Source: an uncultured Methanoregulaceae archaeon
GTDB taxonomy: Archaea; Halobacteriota; Methanomicrobia; Methanomicrobiales; Methanospirillaceae
Length of the DNA: 64,000 nucleotides
Reading direction: 5' to 3'
NCBI GenBank assembly: GCA_963841015.1
Contig: CAWJAX010000003.1
Location: 416,001-480,000 of the forward strand
Shown here piece after piece: positions 793-64,000 of this stretch; position 1 is the first letter of the stretch; every line of letters begins with the position of its first letter. A model generated the notes under the pieces. That model was given only the letters and a program-made list of their open reading frames with translations, was not told where the DNA came from and made no database searches. Position numbers and translations under genes: made by a program.

Positions 793-998
793 TCCCCTGC
801 AATAATTCTCTTTAAAGAGGAGGAGAAAATGCACAGGTACGAAGAAGACGGGGACTGTACCTGTCCCCCCATACCGCCCCTGCGCCTCGCGATGATGACG
901 GAGCACCTGTTCGGGGATTATCGCATCGGGGGAGCCACAGCGGCGGGGGTGAAACCCCTTGAGCGTATAGCTGGTAATTGAGCATTTTCTCCAGAGTC
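793..998 (-). mobile_element. MITE-like repeat copy 1 (module A only, one end degenerate)
   Basis: Ends in tttctccagagtc (986-998); interior matches module A of the copies at 18364 and 49284. Confidence 0.85.
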
Positions 999-11903: not shown

Positions 11904-12232
11904 GGCTCTATTCAGTTCCTTTTGTTATACTTTGAAATACAAAGCACTGGTTCGATAGAGAAGGGAATCGTGCCGGTCTCCCCATTCCGCCCCTGAGCTG
12001 AGCGATAATGACGTAGTACCTGTTTGGGGGTTATCGTAATTGGGGAGCCACAGCGGCGGGGGTGAAACCCCCTTGAGCGTTTAGCTTATAATTGAGCATT
12101 TCTACAGATCAAAAAATTAAAAACTATCTTCCCCCGTGCCTCGGAAAGGCCCTGATGCGGGCGTCCATCATATGGGGACGATTTTGATGATTTGTGTGCG
12201 AACTGAATATTAATTTCTGTTTCTCCAGAGCT
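11904..12232 (-). mobile_element. MITE-like repeat copy 2 (partial module B plus module A with its own internal end)
   Basis: Ends tttctccagagct; internal tttctacagatc at 12099-12110; starts 1 bp after the pelota stop codon. Confidence 0.8.
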
Positions 12233-13367: not shown

Positions 13368-13498
13368 AGTATTGACTGAGCGTGGAGATTATTTTAAAAA
13401 ATCGATTTATTCATAGCATATATTTCGATTTACCTGTTCAGGATAACGTGCGGATCTCATGGCTGTTCCCGACAGCGAAAAAAATGAAACAAAAAACC

Positions 13499-13998
13499 AG
13501 CTCTGGAGAAACAGGCATGAAAAGAGGGTTCGCACCCAAACCATGAAAATCGTAATGTATACGAGGGAACCCCGCCTCAGGGCCTCTCCGAGGCACGGCG
13601 GGCAGGAGTTTTTTTGAATTGTTTGTTCCAGATCCGCCGCCGCGGGGACGACCGTTTGCGGGGCGGCGGCAATCATCCTGAATGGAGGATTGTGAATAAA
13701 AATCTCGTATCATACCTGAATAGTATAATTTTCATAGGAAATCCCCCCGAGTTTTTTGAACCGGTGTGGAAATTACGAGCGTGACCCCCTCTCTCCCCCA
13801 GCGGGGGGCAGCCCATGGGGGCAAGCCCCCTTGACCCCCCCAAGAGCGGTTGGATTTTTCTTTTACGCTGCCGGGAATCCACAGCCATGGTCCACGGGGC
13901 GAGCCCCGACGAGGCGGTGAGGAGCCCGTGATCCCAACGCTATCCGATACAGGTCCCCTCTTTTAGTTTTTAAAAACGAGCACGCTTTCTACAGAGAA
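13499..13998 (+). mobile_element. MITE-like repeat copy 3 (module B + module C)
   Basis: ctctggagaaa at 13501 and tttctacagag ending at 13996; junction TTTCATAGGAAA at 13730-13741. Confidence 0.88.
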
Positions 13999-14017
13999 AG
14001 AAAACAAAAAAAAGTGA

Positions 14018-14695
14018 TTATTCTTCCTTCTTTTCAGGACGTTTAAAGGTTTCAACCAGGGTGATTTCTGATAAATCCCTGATCAACTCGAATCCCTCGT
14101 GGATGATCCTGCTTCTCCAGAGAAGCCAGCGGCGGTCATAGTTAATGCCCGGGGGAAGCGTTACGGTTGCCCTGCCATCATCCATCGCGATTTCCAGGTC
14201 CCTGCCAGCGTACAGCCGGACCAGCCCTTTCAGCTGCTCGAGCGGATCTGTTACTTCATCTTCAATAGTATAGTGGTACGACAGGGTCTGTCCTGCGAGG
14301 GGGGCATTGAAATCGACAATAACCTTCGAACCGATTACATCGACGACCGTCCCTTCACCCATCTCATCCATCTTTACCGACATGCCGCGGACAGGTTTTT
14401 CCTTGAACTGGCTCTTTGGGAACGACTGGATACGTTTGGGATCCCGGTCACCAAATGCTTTCTCGGGGGTTACAACAACATCTCCGGTTGCACCTGTTTC
14501 CTTACCGACAAGTTCCTCATCCAGACCAAGTATTACATGTTTCTGACCGACGCAGATCGTGACCGGCCCGTAAATCGCATTCGGACTGTGGATACCCGCA
14601 GATTTTGCCTCTGCAGCATCGGTGGTATCAAAAATATTCTCATCGACACTTCCTGAATAGCTCAGTTTAATAAAATCTCCATCTTTTATTGCCAT
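14018..14695 (-). CDS. Long-type FKBP peptidyl-prolyl isomerase (SlyD-like)
   Basis: FDTT, VILGLDE, PEKAFG, VDFNAPLAGQTL. Confidence 0.92.
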   Translation of the reverse strand: MAIKDGDFIKLSYSGSVDENIFDTTDAAEAKSAGIHSPNAIYGPVTICVGQKHVILGLDEELVGKETGATGDVVVTPEKAFGDRDPKRIQSFPKSQFKEKPVRGMSVKMDEMGEGTVVDVIGSKVIVDFNAPLAGQTLSYHYTIEDEVTDPLEQLKGLVRLYAGRDLEIAMDDGRATVTLPPGINYDRRWLLWRSRIIHEGFELIRDLSEITLVETFKRPEKKEE

Positions 14696-18119: not shown

Positions 18120-18310
18120 AGCCCTCGACAATTCATTATGAAATAACAGGATAAGAAAGAGGACGGGAGGACAGTACCTGTGCTGCCTGAACGATCCTGT
18201 GCTGATATCGATCATGGTACAGTACCTGGTCTCGTGATACGTATTTTGGAAACGGTGGGGAATAAACCCTAAAAAAAGGGTTCACTTTTTTTTAATCTGT
18301 CACCAGAGCC
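18120..18310 (-). repeat. Highly degenerate MITE-like copy 4 (module A relic)
   Basis: Ends agccctcgacaattc and caccagagcc resemble the family ends; ggacagtacctgt and cagtacctg resemble module A. Confidence 0.5.
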
Positions 18311-18363: not shown

Positions 18364-18570
18364 GACTCTGGAGAAATGCTCAATCACCAGCTAAACGTCA
18401 GGGGGGTTTCACCCTGCCGCTGTGGTTCCCCCGATGCGATAAATCCCTAATGGGTACTGCGTCATCATCACACAGCGCAGGGGCGATAAGGGAGGACAGG
18501 CTCATGTCCCCTCCTTCATCGTACGTGCATCCTGAATTTCACATCAAAGGAAAAGGAATTCTCCAGAGCC
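18364..18570 (+). mobile_element. MITE-like repeat copy 5 (module A only, intact)
   Basis: gactctggagaa...ttctccagagcc; flanks gttctttc and gttttttc (7/8 direct repeat). Confidence 0.92.
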
Positions 18571-25894: not shown

Positions 25895-26140
25895 ATGCCC
25901 GGCACTTCGTCCTTTCGGTCATTTTTTACAAAAACTTCTGGCGGACAGAACGCAGGTGAGGTATCAGAAGATATTCGGGCGTTCAAACGAGCGAAGTTCT
26001 GGTTCTGGCCAATTGTTTTAAGCGTTACTATTTGTTTTGGGTTCTTTGCCGGAATACAGGGAGCATTTATTGGTTTTTTCTACGGACTTGTATGCGGGGG
26101 ATTTCTGCTCCATGAAAGTCTTCGGGTGAAAAAAAAGTGA
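25895..26140 (+). CDS. Small 2-TM membrane protein, paralog of 6277-6486
   Basis: Strong similarity to 6277-6486 over ~50 aa. Confidence 0.75.
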   Translation: MPGTSSFRSFFTKTSGGQNAGEVSEDIRAFKRAKFWFWPIVLSVTICFGFFAGIQGAFIGFFYGLVCGGFLLHESLRVKKK

Positions 26141-26498
26141 CTCTGGAGAAACAGACATGAATCTATGAGGTTCATTCCCGAACCATGTAAATCGTAATAT
26201 ATTCAATGGAACCCCGCCTCAGGGCCTCTTTAGAGGCACAGCGGGCAGGGAATTTTGTCACCAATCCGCCGCGGGGGCGACCATCCGGGGGCGGCGGCGA
26301 TCATCATAAATAGAGACGTGTGAAAAAAATTCGTACCATAACGGAATAGTTCAATTTTCAGGGGAAATGCTCAATCACAAGCTCTATGCTCAAGAGGTTT
26401 CACCCCCCACCCCTGTGGTTCCCCGGTGCGATAAACTCCGAACAGGTTATCCTGGCTGGAGAGATGGGGCAAAGGCGATAAAGATTTATAACAGAATC
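26139..26498 (+). mobile_element. MITE-like repeat copy 7 (module B + 5' half of A; right end unclear)
   Basis: gactctggagaaa overlaps the upstream TGA stop; junction TTTCAGGGGAAA at 26356-26367. Confidence 0.85.
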
Positions 26499-26548: not shown

Positions 26549-26633
26549 TGCGAGGGATGGGATTCGAACCCAAGAACTCCTACGAGACTAGGCCCTCAAC
26601 CTAGCGCCTTTGACCTGGCTTGGCTACCCTCGC
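26549..26633 (-). tRNA. tRNA-Leu (GAG), no encoded CCA
   Basis: GCGAGGG/CCCTCGC acceptor stem, anticodon arm CTAGG-TTGAGGG-CCTAG, long variable arm, GGTTCGAATCC. Confidence 0.96.
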
Positions 26634-31156: not shown

Positions 31157-31372
31157 TGCTCTGGAGAAAAAGCATGAACGCATAATGTTCAAACCAGAAC
31201 CAAAAAATTGCCTGACGATGGACACCCGTCTTTGGCCTCTCAAAAGGCACGGCGGACAGAGATTTTTTTAATCGTTCGTCACCAATCCGCTGCGGGGACG
31301 TCCTTTCGGTGGTGACGCCATCTATCACACGGTTTTTTAGCCGAAATTCACCTGAGAATATTTCATGGACAT
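31157..31372 (+). mobile_element. Degenerate MITE-like copy 8 (module B only)
   Basis: gctctggagaaa; ggcctctcaaaaggcacggcgg; ends at junction-like tttcatggac (31361). Confidence 0.75.
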
Positions 31373-48959: not shown

Positions 48960-49039
48960 ACAAACCGGTTTTTCCCGGAATTATGAGTATTCCCGATTAA
49001 TATTCCCAATTTTTTTTAAAAGATTTTTTTTGATTTTGC

Positions 49040-49483
49040 TGCTCTGTAGAAACGAGCATGAACTGATCGGGTTCACACTCAAACCATGAAAATCTTATTT
49101 TATACGAAGGACTCCCGCATCAGGGCCTCTCCGAGGCACGGCGGGGCAGGGAGTTTTTTTTTAAATTTTTTGGTCATCGATCCGCCACGGGGGCGCCCCT
49201 TCGGGGGTGGCGGCATTCATCCTACCAGATGGATAGAGTGATAATAATTTCCGCATCATATCTGAATAATACAATTTTCATGGGAAATGCTCAATTACAT
49301 GCTAAACGCTCAAAGGGGTTTCACTCCCACCGCTGTGGCTCCCCCGATGCGATAACTCCCGATCAAGTGCTACGTCATCATCGCTCAGCGCAGGGGCGGC
49401 ATGGGCGGACAGGCACTGTCCCCTCCTTCATCCGTACCAGCATCTTGAATTTCATATCAAGGGAAAAGGAATTCTACAGAGTC
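49040..49483 (+). mobile_element. MITE-like repeat copy 9 (module B + module A, intact)
   Basis: ctctgtagaa/ttctacagag TIR; perfect 8-bp direct repeat gattttgc at 49032-49039 and 49484-49491. Confidence 0.95.
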
Positions 49484-49535
49484 GATTTTGCAGTATTTTT
49501 TTCCAGACACAGGGGAGTATCGTTGGGAATAAAAA

Positions 49536-51113
49536 TTACTCCTGCGAAAAAGTGGAGTTTTTTTTCCTGAATATCAGTACTTTACTATTTTCAAAAATTA
49601 AACGGTGATCATCAGAATTGGCAAATGATGAAATAATATATCCATTTTCAGGATTTTTGATGATATACACATGCGAATATCTGAAATTATAATTATTGGA
49701 AACATTCTCAAAACAGAAGGTATCTTCACAATTGCTTAATTCAAGGTCAGCTAACCATAACTGAGGCTTATTTGACCATTCATTTCCGTAAAATATATTG
49801 AGAGTTTTTCTGTGGGTTATAGCAGGAAACCAGTCTCCGATCCAAAACTGGTTTTTCTGTTCACTTGCAATAACATCTTTTACGATAAAAGTACTGGTAT
49901 TTTCAGTATTTTGTTGTATCCAGTACATAGCTTCGAAATGTCCTTTTTCGTCATCTTTCAGGGAAGAATACCTGGATTCAAAAAAATCCCGGTTTTGAAT
50001 GTAACTGCCTCCAAGAATCAGGACTACTAACAGAATAGTAAAAAATAATGGTAAAAGAGTTTTTTCTGGTGTTTCAGCATTCAGGGTAAACTTCAGAGCG
50101 GGAAATATCACTTTCATCAATCCAACAGAAAAAAGGATGATTACCAATATCAGAGGTATAATCACCACTCCATACCCCCCGCTTATTACCAATAAAACGA
50201 ATAAAACAGGTAAAAAAAATTCTTTTTTGGCGAGGTAATAAAAAAGGCCAAGTAAGCAGATTAATATTAAAGATAACTGATAATTATAAAAGTTAGTTAA
50301 ATAAATATTTATAAATATATTGAATACTGCAGTTGGTTGTCGTACCATAAACCCATTTATCAGAACATCAATTCCATGATTCCGGATAACGGTAAACCAC
50401 CAGGGAGAGCTGATTAACGTCGCGATAATCACAATAAACGCAACATCGAACACCGTTTTTTTCCGGGGATTGAGTAATGCAACGGCAAACAGGACCAGGG
50501 CATATGCAAAGGCACACCGGGGACTCGATACTATTAACAATCCAAAAAGAATTCCTATAAAAAAAATGAATGTATCATTCTTAAATTTCATCCATCGGAG
50601 AACAAGAATCAGACCAATAATAAAAAATAACGTACCAACACCATGAACGAGAAAGAGTCCCTGCGCAGAATAAGAAATCAGCGGGAGGTATAAAGCAAAA
50701 ATCAGTGTACTTATGAGGATTAAGGATTTTTCAGTGAATAATTCTTTTACTAAAAAATAAAACGCGAATATGCATACTATGCTGATTATCACAGGAATGT
50801 AAATAACAAGAGTCAATAACGGGACGGGGAACAGGGTGCTGCTCAATGCTAATACATAAAATATTAACGGGGGGTACGCAAAAGGGATTCCAGTTTCTGT
50901 ATAAAATGGAATATATGCCGGGTATGAAAAATTATTCTGAACAATAATTTCTGAAAAAAACAGATACAGTCCACCGTTATTGAGGGGGAGATTTGAGGAA
51001 AATCCCATAAATATATGGGGTAATAATCTTAAAAAAATCCCCAAAATTATGGAAGTTATAAGAACAAAATTAAAAAAAAATTTCGTTTGTATGAATGAAT
51101 AAAAATCTTTCAT
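49536..51113 (-). CDS. GT-C fold (ArnT/PMT/GT39-like) membrane glycosyltransferase, AT-rich
   Basis: LRL...GGLY...YPPL pattern, about 11 TM, soluble C-terminal domain. Confidence 0.75.
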   Translation of the reverse strand: MKDFYSFIQTKFFFNFVLITSIILGIFLRLLPHIFMGFSSNLPLNNGGLYLFFSEIIVQNNFSYPAYIPFYTETGIPFAYPPLIFYVLALSSTLFPVPLLTLVIYIPVIISIVCIFAFYFLVKELFTEKSLILISTLIFALYLPLISYSAQGLFLVHGVGTLFFIIGLILVLRWMKFKNDTFIFFIGILFGLLIVSSPRCAFAYALVLFAVALLNPRKKTVFDVAFIVIIATLISSPWWFTVIRNHGIDVLINGFMVRQPTAVFNIFINIYLTNFYNYQLSLILICLLGLFYYLAKKEFFLPVLFVLLVISGGYGVVIIPLILVIILFSVGLMKVIFPALKFTLNAETPEKTLLPLFFTILLVVLILGGSYIQNRDFFESRYSSLKDDEKGHFEAMYWIQQNTENTSTFIVKDVIASEQKNQFWIGDWFPAITHRKTLNIFYGNEWSNKPQLWLADLELSNCEDTFCFENVSNNYNFRYSHVYIIKNPENGYIISSFANSDDHRLIFENSKVLIFRKKNSTFSQE

Positions 51114-54601: not shown

Positions 54602-54932
54602 TGTTCTGGAGAAATGAGCATAAACTGATCGGGTTCACACACAAACCATGAAAATCGTAATGTATATGTTGGAACCCCGCTTCAGGGCCTCTTTAGAGGC
54701 ACGGCGGGCAGGGGTTTTTTTTGAATTGTTTGTTCCAGATCCACCGCGGGGGCGACCCTTCGGGGGCGGTGGCGATCATCGTACATGGAGGTGTGTTAAA
54801 AAAAACTCGTATCATAACTGAATAGTTCGATTTTCATGGGAAATGCTCAATTACATGCTAAACGCTCAAGGGGGTTTCACCCCCGCCGCTTGTTTGCCTG
54901 AGTCCGTGACTAATGTGCGTTTCTACAGAGCC
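54602..54932 (+). mobile_element. MITE-like repeat copy 10 (module B + truncated A + short tail)
   Basis: ttctggagaaa...ttctacagagcc; perfect 8-bp direct repeat tatttctg at 54594-54601 and 54933-54940. Confidence 0.95.
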
Positions 54933-56842: not shown

Positions 56843-57008
56843 TCGTGTTTTTTTGACGTGTGCCTCAAACACCAGAGATGAAAAAAAGGGTATAGTGCCA
56901 TTTTAACTACCAACTCGTAAAGGAAATAACGAGAGAAAAAACAATCAGAAAAGTGTTCTAAAAATTCAGGATGAAAAAGTGTTCCTGTTCAAAGGACCAA
57001 AAACGCAG

Positions 57009-57056
57009 ACGCTCAAAGGGGCTTCGCCCCGCCACTATGGTGCCCCGGTTGTGATG
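57009..57056 (+). repeat. Fragment of MITE module A (copy 11)
   Basis: acgctcaaaggggcttcgccccgccactatggtgccccggttgtgat vs acgctcaaaggggtttcactcccaccgctgtggctcccccgatgcgat in copy 9. Confidence 0.65.
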
Positions 57057-57181
57057 GCGTTATATACCCCATGATCAGGTATACCGGTAATACAGATGAA
57101 TCGCCAATGTGTTTGTCGTGGTGAGAACGGGCATACACATTAATCCGGAGGCATCGGATTGCACATCGGGTCAGAGGAATA

Positions 57182-62385: not shown

Positions 62386-62417
62386 CCGTGTTGACGGCAA
62401 AGATCTATTAATTTTTT

Positions 62418-62848
62418 GGCTCCGTAGAATTCCTGTTCTATCGATATGAAATTCAAGATGCTGGTACTATGACAGAGGGGACAGTGCCTCTTCCCCCATA
62501 CCGACCCTGCACTGAGCGATGATGACGTTGCATCTGTTCGGAATTTATCGCATCGGGGGAGCCACAGCGCAGGGGTGAAACCGCCTTGAGCGTATGCTTG
62601 CAATTGAGCATTTCCCATGGAAATTGAACTATTCAGGTAGGATGCGAGATTTTTTTCACACCCCTTCATGTACGACGATCACCTCCGCCGAAGGGTTGCC
62701 CCCAGCAGCGGATCAGGAACAAACAATTCAAAAAAACCCCTGCCCGCCGTGCCTCAGAGAGACCATGAGGAGGGGTTCCATCGTATACAGTACGATTTTC
62801 ATGGTTCGGGTGTAACCCCCAGAAATTCATGTCTGTTTCTCCAGAGTC
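62418..62848 (-). mobile_element. MITE-like repeat copy 12 (module B + module A)
   Basis: ggctccgtagaa...tttctccagagtc; flanks aatttttt and attttttt (7/8); junction at 62611-62622. Confidence 0.92.
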
Positions 62849-62885
62849 ATTTTTTTATTGAAAAACTCTACCCAATTCCTTTACC

Positions 62886-64000
62886 TCACCCCGCCTCCCA
62901 TTTCTTTCGGATACCCTGTCCTGCTAAAAAACCCGTTGAGAACGCGGCCTGCAGGTTGTATCCACCAGTATCACCATCTATATCCAGCACTTCACCGGCA
63001 AAATAGAGATTCGGTATACTTTTTGATTCCATGGTTTTCAGATTCACGCCGTCAAGCGCAACCCCGCCCCGGGTCACCATCGCAACCGAATAACCGCCAG
63101 GTGCCTCAACGGTCAGCGGGAATTGTGTGCAGCTGGTGATCAGGCATGATCGTTGTTCAGCAGAGAAATGATTGCACTTCAGATCGTCCGGTATCCCCGT
63201 TAACTTCAGAAGTTTCCGGTTAAGGCGTTCCGGGATCGGGTATGCAGCAAGTATGGTACTGATCTGCCAGCTCCGGTGTTCCTCCACACGACTAGTGAGA
63301 TCAGCAGCAAACTCCTCACGCTTCAGGTTTCCCACAAATGAGAGTTGAATGACGTCATCCGGCTGAATGTCCCGCGAAGCATCAAGGATGCCCGGCCCTG
63401 ACAAACCAAGGTGGGTGAACAGGACATCTCCCCTGCGATCTGCTATTTTTTTCCCGGCCCGCCAGATCGAGAACCGCATGCCTTCAAACGAGATACCCGC
63501 GAGTGCTGCAAACGGGTAATTCCTGATAAGCAGGGGAGTGAGGGCGGGTGCAATTGCGGTTACCTGCTGACCCAGGGATGCAGAAATCCGATACCCGTCC
63601 CCGGTCGATCCTGTCTTTGGATAGGATGCTCCACCGGTTGCAATGACAAGAACCGGAGAAAGATAGGTGGTTTTCGGCGTTGTTATCTCAAAACCTTCAT
63701 CAGTCCGATTCACACGGGTTGCCGGCTCGCCACAATGAAAATTGACGCCCCGATCTTTGCATTCTTTTATGAGCAGGGCGAGAACGTCTGCTGACCGGAG
63801 AGTTTCCGGGAACACTTTGCCGTTCTCTTCTGTAATCATAGCAAGCCCGCGAGTGCAGAAGAATTCGATGAGATCCTGGTTGGTGAACCCGAATAAGGCG
63901 GGTTTTACCTGTTTTCCATGATCTCCATAATGAGAAATGAAATCACGGATTTCTCCGCCGTGAGTGATATTGCATTGCCCGGATCCGGAAAGGAGGAGCT
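62886..64000 (-). CDS. HI0933/BaiN family flavoprotein (5' end outside window)
   Basis: SGSGQCNITH at the edge, ATGGASYP..GSTGDG, FTH.GLSGP, GGYNLQAAFSTG. Confidence 0.92.
   Translation of the reverse strand, partial: LLLSGSGQCNITHGGEIRDFISHYGDHGKQVKPALFGFTNQDLIEFFCTRGLAMITEENGKVFPETLRSADVLALLIKECKDRGVNFHCGEPATRVNRTDEGFEITTPKTTYLSPVLVIATGGASYPKTGSTGDGYRISASLGQQVTAIAPALTPLLIRNYPFAALAGISFEGMRFSIWRAGKKIADRRGDVLFTHLGLSGPGILDASRDIQPDDVIQLSFVGNLKREEFAADLTSRVEEHRSWQISTILAAYPIPERLNRKLLKLTGIPDDLKCNHFSAEQRSCLITSCTQFPLTVEAPGGYSVAMVTRGGVALDGVNLKTMESKSIPNLYFAGEVLDIDGDTGGYNLQAAFSTGFLAGQGIRKKWEAG

Follow-up and report, generated by a model that had tools for sequence, protein, structure and literature searches.

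The stretch analysed here, called the window throughout, comprises 64,000 nt of an uncultured Methanoregulaceae archaeon (positions 416,001 to 480,000 of contig CAWJAX010000003.1, assembly GCA_963841015.1). The source genome, denoted G000, has 2.28 Mb in five contigs with a G+C content of about 48-49%, and its assembly is 94% complete; the window corresponds to G000:C3:416001-480000, and window positions are counted from its first letter. At 13499-13998 lies a composite of two repeat modules, cap B and module C. Two kinds of such modules can be distinguished. Two-ended cores are complete MITEs (miniature inverted-repeat transposable elements), namely A (about 207 bp) and C (about 220-260 bp). 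Caps have one end only (B, ~235 bp and with two conserved GC-rich hairpins; B-short, ~115 bp; E, ~67 bp; D, ~60 bp): a genuine outer terminal inverted repeat (TIR; GGCTCTGKAGAAAC) is followed by a body and then by a pseudo-end that is conserved, TTTTCATGG (also written TTTTCATGGGAAAT), which stands in place of the first ~9 nt of the TIR of the next module. The composite has the following parts:

13499-13998, plus strand: composite of cap B and module C, delimited by the outermost TIR pair; the flanking 8-mers AAAAAACC and AGAAAACA match at 6 of 8 positions.
13499-13512, plus strand: outer left TIR of cap B, AGCTCTGGAGAAAC; the same TIR is present on a 1,007-bp insertion sequence (IS).
13570-13602, plus strand: hairpin H1 of B, then a T run; near-invariant across the genus.
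13634-13670, plus strand: hairpin H2 of B, from the alignment of B cores.
13727-13741, plus strand: end of the cap, AATTTTCATAG, fused with the inner portion (GAAAT) of the partner TIR; this is the TTTC-N4-GAAA site of the first-pass annotation.
13730-13741, plus strand: junction TTTCATAGGAAA of the B+C composite, read from the sequence.
13742-13998, plus strand: module C, whose left TIR is short of its initial ~9 nt here but complete in the copy on contig C5.
13985-13998, plus strand: inverted right TIR of C, TTTCTACAGAG, read from the sequence.

The TIR GGCTCTGKAGAA and an 8-bp target duplication are common to these repeats and to an autonomous IS of the same genome. A scan for inverted TIR pairs revealed 1,005-bp pairs (1,007 bp including the terminal G/C) at three positions outside the window, C2:353343-354349, C3:194783-195789 and C5:79673-80679. 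The three copies are mutually 87% identical, have the TIR GGCTTTGTAGAA, and are enclosed by perfect 8-bp duplications (AATTTTTT, CGAAAATT and GATTGCAT). An open reading frame of about 305 aa, open in all three copies, scored 85.2 bits against Pfam DDE_Tnp_1 (PF01609, cut-off 23) and 217.4 bits against NCBIfam NF033579, the IS5 family equivalog (cut-off 140), and the three copies are the sole DDE_Tnp_1 matches in G000. The nearest relatives of the transposase are uncharacterised copies in metagenome-assembled genomes of Methanoregula, with 80-89% identity, followed by Methanolobus/Methanosarcina at about 57%. The left end of A continues like the right end of the IS (GAAATGCT), and the right end of A like the left end of the IS (GAATTCCT); a BLAST comparison of the modules with the IS interior gave no internal match. 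Stand-alone copies of A start with (G/T)GCTCTG(G/T)AGAAATGCTCAAT and end with GGAATTCT(C/A)CAGAGCC, with A+T-rich 8-bp direct repeats outside. Altogether, 34 of the 43 elements with both outer TIRs placed, composites included, have flanking 8-mers that are identical at six or more of the eight positions, and 11 are perfect; shuffled partners reach this level in 8.8%. Because the TIR and the 8-bp duplication are shared with an autonomous IS present in three intact copies, these data show that the repeats are MITEs of the resident IS5-family element, which is likely to drive all of them in trans. In addition, they are short, non-coding, present in many copies, and polymorphic for presence and absence at orthologous sites, as described below. 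The first-pass annotation had placed them outside the MITE concept, a view that finds no support, given the autonomous element with the same ends and duplication.

Several other origins were considered and rejected. The GGCTCT start of the TIR together with the 8-bp duplication had pointed to ISL3, but there is no ISL3 transposase: PF01610 (DDE_Tnp_ISL3) has 0 matches in the 94% complete G000, and the control search gave matches in 5 of 14 genomes. For the hairpin-rich B, we considered an origin from IS200/IS605, from a palindrome-associated transposable element (PATE), or from a repetitive extragenic palindrome (REP) with its REP-associated tyrosine transposase (RAYT); neither PF01797 (Y1_Tnp) nor PF07282 (TnpB-type) has a match in G000. 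A known RNA family was also rejected. In an Rfam search of the window, two tRNAs alone reach the gathering thresholds and no Rfam family fits the repeats; there are three sub-threshold matches at chance level at 13450-14050 and none at 49000-49540. As to a coding role, the ATG in TTTTCATGG starts only a short frame that, as read by eye, has no counterpart in stand-alone A.

The repeats were catalogued by iterative nhmmer searches over the whole of G000. This yielded 125 matches to A (65 full length), 62 to B (34 full length) and 3 to C, which fall into 141 clusters; with the 9 matches to module E (7 full length) there are 142 clusters, and these cover 35,098 bp, or 1.5% of the 2.28 Mb. About 10 of the approximately 142 loci are in the window. 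One region, G000:C2:534000-577300, is unusually dense, with more than 20 module matches in about 43 kb. A genome-wide scan for TIR pairs with duplications found nothing beyond these families and the IS. Repeats resembling B or A are present in all 24 Methanoregula genomes drawn, compared with two weak matches in 16 genomes from other genera of the order.

In all composites of the standard type, the pseudo-end of the cap is joined in register to the inner TIR half (GAAAT or GAATT) of the next module, which is presumably the transposase-binding half; the GAAA of the joint represents TIR positions 10-13. At the other end of B, the 5' end is intact in 53 copies, and 38 of these have an outer TIR with at most 4 mismatches in 14 positions, versus 1.6% at random, and the remaining 5' ends are mostly degenerate TIR versions. 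No B copy in G000 ends in an inverted TIR. Instead, the 3' end of B, ...(C/G)(A)ATTTTCATGG, belongs to an inverted repeat of 11-12 bp inside the module, of which it forms one arm, with CCATGAAAATCG at 13541-13552 and CGATTTTCATGG at the 3' end. The 12-mer TTTCATGGGAAA, with up to one mismatch, occurs 57 times in G000 (about 11 occurrences are expected from base composition), and 26 of the 57, as counted from the listing, are at a joint of cap and partner.

The partners of B are diverse. The 3' end is preserved in 39 B copies, and 29 of these are followed by a module in register: A in the same orientation in 23 cases, inverted A in four, and E and C in one each. Among the 23 B-A(+) copies, 21 have the standard joint, one has an extra 63-nt unit D, and one has a complete internal TIR; the four B-A(-) copies are joined as CAGGGGAATTCC and similar. 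The other 10 copies are without a recognised module, several of them continuing as degenerate A, and in at least two (C3:377742 and C3:492231) unrelated DNA directly follows GGGAAA or AGGAAA. Module E is a 67-nt miniature of the cap design (GGCTCTGTAGAAAC, body, TTTTTCATGG) and, in 6 of 8 copies, has the GAATTCC end of A as its neighbour at the joint. B-short and D obey the same grammar as B; a hidden Markov model of the middle part of B-short matched only its own seed, and the 3-4 copies of B-short were counted by reading the nhmmer and junction listings. Caps are found on the left, on the right, or on both ends of A. A B-A-E(-) arrangement is present at C2:544932, C2:555735, C4:72745 and window position 54602, and a B-E-A(-) stack is complete in the sister genome G017 (L126, 290-870) and partial at G000 C3:149614. 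At G000:C5 ~81663-81881, module C is a complete MITE: it has two TIRs, the left one being GGCTATGCAGAAATCCCC, as well as a duplication of its own, and it sits within a B, in the T-rich spacer.

In other species of Methanoregula, the partners at the cap end are C in either orientation as well as D+C (G007), a variant of A in either orientation (G005), and yet another module (G010). The joint is conserved across at least six species examined and, because the same cap end meets different partners in other species, it is a genus-wide, partner-independent feature. Unit D (~60 nt: …GGAAAT … GCCTG(T/C)G(A/G)CCGCAGGC … TTTCATGG) was observed in two species (G000:C2:545195-545256 and G007 L116), in each case inserted after B and before the partner of B and bounded on both sides by junction-like motifs. 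Thus, the combinatorial modules joined at the GAAA of the TIR that the first-pass annotation had described are borne out by at least four partner types in G000 (A+, A-, C and E) and by inverted C, D, the A variant and the further module elsewhere in the genus. Its modules A, B and C are real, but E and D had been overlooked. C is the tail of B at 13499, though not solely a tail, given the complete two-TIR MITE on C5; and what had been read as B with a partial A at 54602 is in fact B, A[3-57] and an inverted E as a third module. The junction had been taken for the fused inner halves of a right and a left end. This is true of the GAAA half, which is TIR; the TTTC half belongs to the inner repeat of the cap, possibly as a relic of a right TIR.

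The arrangement of the modules could also be read differently, with the cap bodies as separate tiny elements with the ends CATGA...TCATG that insert one-way into the GAAA of a TIR and duplicate it; stacks would then arise by repeated insertion into the regenerated outer TIR. GAAA is indeed present on both sides of every cap body (GGAGAAA|C ... CATGG|GAAA), and GAAA bounds each unit of the B-E-A stacks. Short terminal inverted repeats are found in B and in E, B having in addition the inner inverted repeat CCATGAAAATCG / CGATTTTCATGG, and caps occupy either TIR of A and C in a constant orientation to that TIR. However, all B bodies found are next to an outer TIR, which is recognisable in the 38 of 53 copies mentioned above and mostly degenerate in the rest, and no second transposase was found, as Y1_Tnp, TnpB-type, ISL3 and additional DDE_Tnp_1 domains are all without match. 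Furthermore, the cap ends are unlike the TIR of the IS, the duplication would be 4 bp and not 8, and the copies with a cap, GAAATx and then a complete TIR (see below) are not expected from insertion into a TIR. We therefore regard separate cap elements as unlikely.

The composites carry target duplications around the entire unit. Perfect 8-bp duplications enclose the composites at C2:474884, C2:576771, C3:13199 (GAAGTTTC), and window positions 49040 and 54602. The window is syntenic with contig C17 of G017, and seven sites were inspected in this comparison, three of which (sites 1, 3 and 4) aligned too poorly to define empty sites. In one case, G017 has a B+A composite with the duplication TCTT(C/T)AT at a site that is uninterrupted in the window (~30617); in another, TATTTCTG is present as a single copy in G017 at the place taken in the window by the three-module composite at 54602. 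The 8-bp duplications around whole composites and one empty site in each direction show that composites transpose as single units. At the 13499 locus itself, contigs of two metagenome runs (X1 and X10, one each) join 13415 to 14013 without the B+C element, possibly with other letters between the two sides; thus, related strains lack B+C there. The presence/absence polymorphism named above comprises these joins, the G017 B+A composite and the window element at 54602. A further difference between the two genomes is seen at window ~62387-62902, where about 0.5 kb with an A-B composite corresponds to about 6.4 kb in G017 (C17:5617-11999) that include a B-E-A(-) stack.

These results bear on the strong form of the first-pass proposal, in which cassettes are excised and joined by site-specific recombination, with TTTC-N4-GAAA as the core of a dedicated, integron- or dif-like system. 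The joint is precise, partly palindromic, present in the six or more species examined, and compatible with many partner types. Its palindrome, however, comprises only 4+4 nt, and the centre lacks symmetry; the GAAA is no more than TIR positions 10-13, and the TTTC comes from the inner repeat of the cap. Moreover, composites have 8-bp duplications of the transposase type and act as single insertions. No free module, module-level polymorphism or recombinase was seen, although recombinase genes and circles were never searched for. The duplications at the element flanks and the absence of composites from orthologous sites make an undescribed recombination system unnecessary, nothing testable here indicates one, and we consider it highly improbable.

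Next to transposition as units, the partners of B and A have been exchanged. The divergences of B and of A were compared within pairs of composites by Fisher tests. In the pair C2:555738 / C2:545257, B has 59 differences in 231 positions and A 15 in 194 (p=1e-6); in C4:72745 / C2:545257, the values are 65/218 for B and 15/187 for A (p=2e-8). The pair C3:465043 / C2:545257 shows the opposite, with 9/235 for B and 22/194 for A (p=0.004), as does a pair of two B+A(-) copies, with 24/223 for B and 80/197 for A (p=1e-12). As the discordance runs in both directions, a difference in rates is ruled out as its source. Incongruence of A and B had been proposed as a test in the first-pass annotation. A Mantel test of B against A distances gave r=-0.14 (p=0.72, n=14), a flat result that is expected from the star-like history of A. 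A is more homogeneous than B (mean p-distance 0.19 vs 0.23), and the nearest neighbour is mostly one consensus-like copy.

The homogeneity of A would fit a history of losses only, in which a long ancestor of a cap, A and an inverted cap, like B-A-E, was reduced by deletions between the GAGAAA and GGGAAA repeats; the discordant divergences would then result from ordinary gene conversion, and the joint would be a mere edge of homology. Elements of this kind are real (the four B-A-E(-) copies listed above), and a GAGAAA-GGGAAA deletion would restore exactly the TIR of stand-alone A. Yet loss alone cannot yield B+A(-), B+C, B+E+A, B with C in both orientations, or the modules of other species, and a pair that differs by 3.8% in B and 11.3% in A demands a replacement of A, which goes beyond homogenisation. 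We judge this history to be quite unlikely. Nor are the variants those of a single B-A-C master element with scattered breakpoints.

How, then, are the composites formed? We consider it probable, with some reservation, that caps and cores form an IS5-mobilised MITE superfamily in which composites arise by insertion and subsequent collapse. A complete element would land directly beside the pseudo-end of a cap, and the TIR of the cap and the far TIR of the newcomer would then delimit a new mobile unit. The short direct repeat so created (GAAATx ... GGCTCTGKW GAAATx) would collapse by slippage to the standard junction, leaving an internal end without its terminal ~9 nt, so that the outermost TIR pair alone would define the mobile unit. 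Gene conversion among the approximately 190 copies could add mosaicism. We infer both this route and an attraction of insertions by the pseudo-end. Ordinary nested insertions retain full TIRs and duplications, as with A in B at C3:28919 (GATATTTT) and C in B on C5; since they keep complete TIRs, the standard joint needs a further step.

Possible intermediates are the rare copies that have both a junction and a full TIR. In three copies, the cap end is followed by 2-5 nt and a complete TIR: C3:344809 (...TTATCGGAAATG TGCTCTGGAGAAATGCTC), C3:328285, which is degenerate, and L138 of G007 (...CATGGGAAATC GGCTCTGTTGAAATCC). In C3:344809 and L138, the 9 terminal TIR bases are situated between 6-nt repeats that are partner-specific (GAAATG for A and GAAATC for C), and therefore a 15-nt deletion gives exactly the standard joint. 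The flanks of the whole unit at C3:344809 (AGTTTTTA / GTTTTTTA) match at 6 of 8 positions, indicating that a composite with a full internal TIR has itself transposed as a unit.

A number of observations weigh against this route. Such intermediates are few, with two in G000 and one among 61 genomes of the genus under a strict pattern, and C3:328285 is without a partner-specific hexamer repeat. Reciprocal products of insertion at the junction were looked for and none were found. None of the seven G000/G017 sites inspected differs by a single module, and exchange in situ was never observed at orthologous loci, of which few were compared. GAAAT-like target 8-mers amount to 4 of 23 versus 2.8%, a comparison without A+T matching that we do not use as support; insertion targets are simply A+T-rich (0.79 vs 0.53). 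The search for transposases covered five families only, in a genome that is 94% complete. The conservation of the hairpins H1 and H2 across species, presented below, goes beyond a purely selfish model. Finally, insertion and collapse do not account for how the first cap and its pseudo-end came about: cap end and joint (TTCATGG-GAAAT) resemble the TIR (CTC-TGGAGAAAT), but equally a centre-deleted pair of abutted ends, as in the first-pass proposal.

A more far-reaching view, which we hold to be doubtful, is that the inner TIR half is a true exchange point, either because the pseudo-end binds transposase and recruits elements, or because the cap bodies are TIR-specific parasites. If so, MITEs would be assembled in Methanoregula recursively, in the manner of cassettes, and this would also be a route by which MITEs gain internal DNA unrelated to the IS and spread H1 and H2 through the genus.

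When 33 B cores, drawn from at least 12 genomes, are aligned, H1 and H2 show hardly any variation, and the spacer between them is free to vary. RNAalifold predicted 21 pairs, four of which have compensatory double changes. In G000, all 29 H1 and all 17 H2 sequences found by pattern are inside a B, and in other Methanoregula genomes single copies of H1 or H2 also occur alone. The H1 interval reaches a depth of 267-897 in contigs of sediment and wetland metagenomes, an RNA library among them, though contigs cannot show transcription, strand or ends; the contigs of this pile-up have unrelated sequence on both sides. The H1/H2 pair possibly represents a terminator, an RNA, or a protein-binding module, and hairpins conserved throughout the genus may have a function for the host.

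The remaining copies in the window are as follows; all coordinates of the first-pass annotation proved correct against the genome sequence and the nhmmer matches:

804-989, minus strand: A copy, model 5-194, one end degenerate (nhmmer).
11907-12229, minus strand: composite of truncated B [1-132] and A (nhmmer), absent from the first-pass annotation.
18137-18300, minus strand: degenerate A fragment, model 15-177 (nhmmer), newly added.
18364-18570, plus strand: complete stand-alone A MITE with both TIRs (nhmmer and sequence).
26139-26452, plus strand: cap B and A[2-95], junction TTTCAGGGGAAA at 26356, truncated and without right TIR (nhmmer and junction scan).
31157-31372, plus strand: cap B alone, model 1-182 and then diverged; it stops at TTTCATGG, with unrelated DNA after it.
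49040-49483, plus strand: composite of B and A, enclosed in its entirety by the perfect 8-bp duplication GATTTTGC, junction at 49276.
54602-54932, plus strand: three-module composite of B, A[3-57] and inverted cap E[1-43], perfect duplication TATTTCTG, junction at 54832.
57000-57087, plus strand: A fragment, model 19-97 (nhmmer), also newly added.
62418-62848, minus strand: composite of B and A, junction variant TTCCATGGGAAA at 62622, flanking 8-mers identical at 7 of 8 positions.

The degenerate inverted A at 18137-18300 is about 60 nt upstream of the complete A at 18364-18570, and the two form one of four head-to-head pairs genome-wide. Downstream of the truncated B+A at 26139-26452, at a distance of about 100 nt, there is a tRNA-Leu(GAG) (26549-26633); in place of that element, the sister genome holds unrelated sequence.

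Archaeal MITEs treated in the parts seen of a 2024 review are those of Sulfolobus, Halobacterium, Haloquadratum and Desulfurococcus, and these parts mention no chimeric, modular or tandem MITEs, no bacterial interspersed mosaic elements (BIMEs), and no MITE of Methanoregula (PMC10969869). A 2026 survey of archaeal IS reports an IS content of 12.8% for one Methanoregula genome and, as far as its accessible parts go, does not treat MITEs (PMC13343696). A full-text search of the literature gave no relevant account of Methanoregula MITEs or of chimeric, modular or nested prokaryotic MITEs; the single paper that mentions Methanoregula along with miniature inverted repeats concerns a Staphylothermus genome. 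This is apparently the first record in the searchable literature of a heavy load of MITEs in Methanoregula, which is a key methanogen of peat and sediment. What is new is the modular build, from caps and cores, of a MITE superfamily belonging to an archaeal IS5-family element. It bears on the old question of how MITEs with interiors unrelated to the parent IS originate and diversify: one-ended caps hitch TIR-bearing partners via a fixed-register fusion that presumably inactivates the internal end, and both the transposase of the system and natural candidates for intermediates are present.

Among known systems, IS5-derived prokaryotic MITEs are the closest in kind, as they are likewise short, non-coding, multi-copy elements that have the TIRs and the fixed duplication of a resident IS and are moved in trans. 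The present family differs by its caps and cores, the fixed joint inside the TIR, recursive stacking, partner swaps, and interiors that are unrelated to the IS. The autonomous element resembles the IS5 members of the IS903/ISH1 type, for which TIR and duplication lengths are given in ISfinder: both have about 1 kb, one DDE transposase of about 300 aa, a TIR starting with GGCTTTG, and a duplication of 8-9 bp. The start of the TIR and the length of the duplication hint at this subgroup.

By description, the BIME/REP mosaics of E. coli and the pneumococcal BOX elements (boxA-boxB-boxC) are similar in being dispersed intergenic modules of variable order and orientation with hairpins. BIME/REP elements depend on RAYT (Y1) transposases and are not known to have TIRs or duplications, whereas the modules described here have both, and G000 has no match to the Y1 or TnpB-type genes that go with REP/BIME and PATE elements. 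BOX elements, to our knowledge, have no TIR, no duplication and no IS partner; compared in the same way, by description, they have a fixed boxA-boxB(n)-boxC order without TIRs, in contrast to the varying order, TIRs and duplications found here. In the Correia elements of Neisseria, which are MITEs with a TA duplication, subtypes arise through TIR variants and one internal deletion. They share with the present family end variants, internal indel variants and hairpins, which are regulatory in the Correia elements, but are not known to have one-ended caps or stacking. IS30, IS3 and IS21 target inverted repeats and form abutted ends, and these joints keep both full ends and are hyper-reactive. As proposed for the composites of Methanoregula, insertion beside the end of another copy alters which ends are used; the internal end described here, however, is shortened by about 9 nt and presumably inert, and both the transposase family and the chemistry differ.

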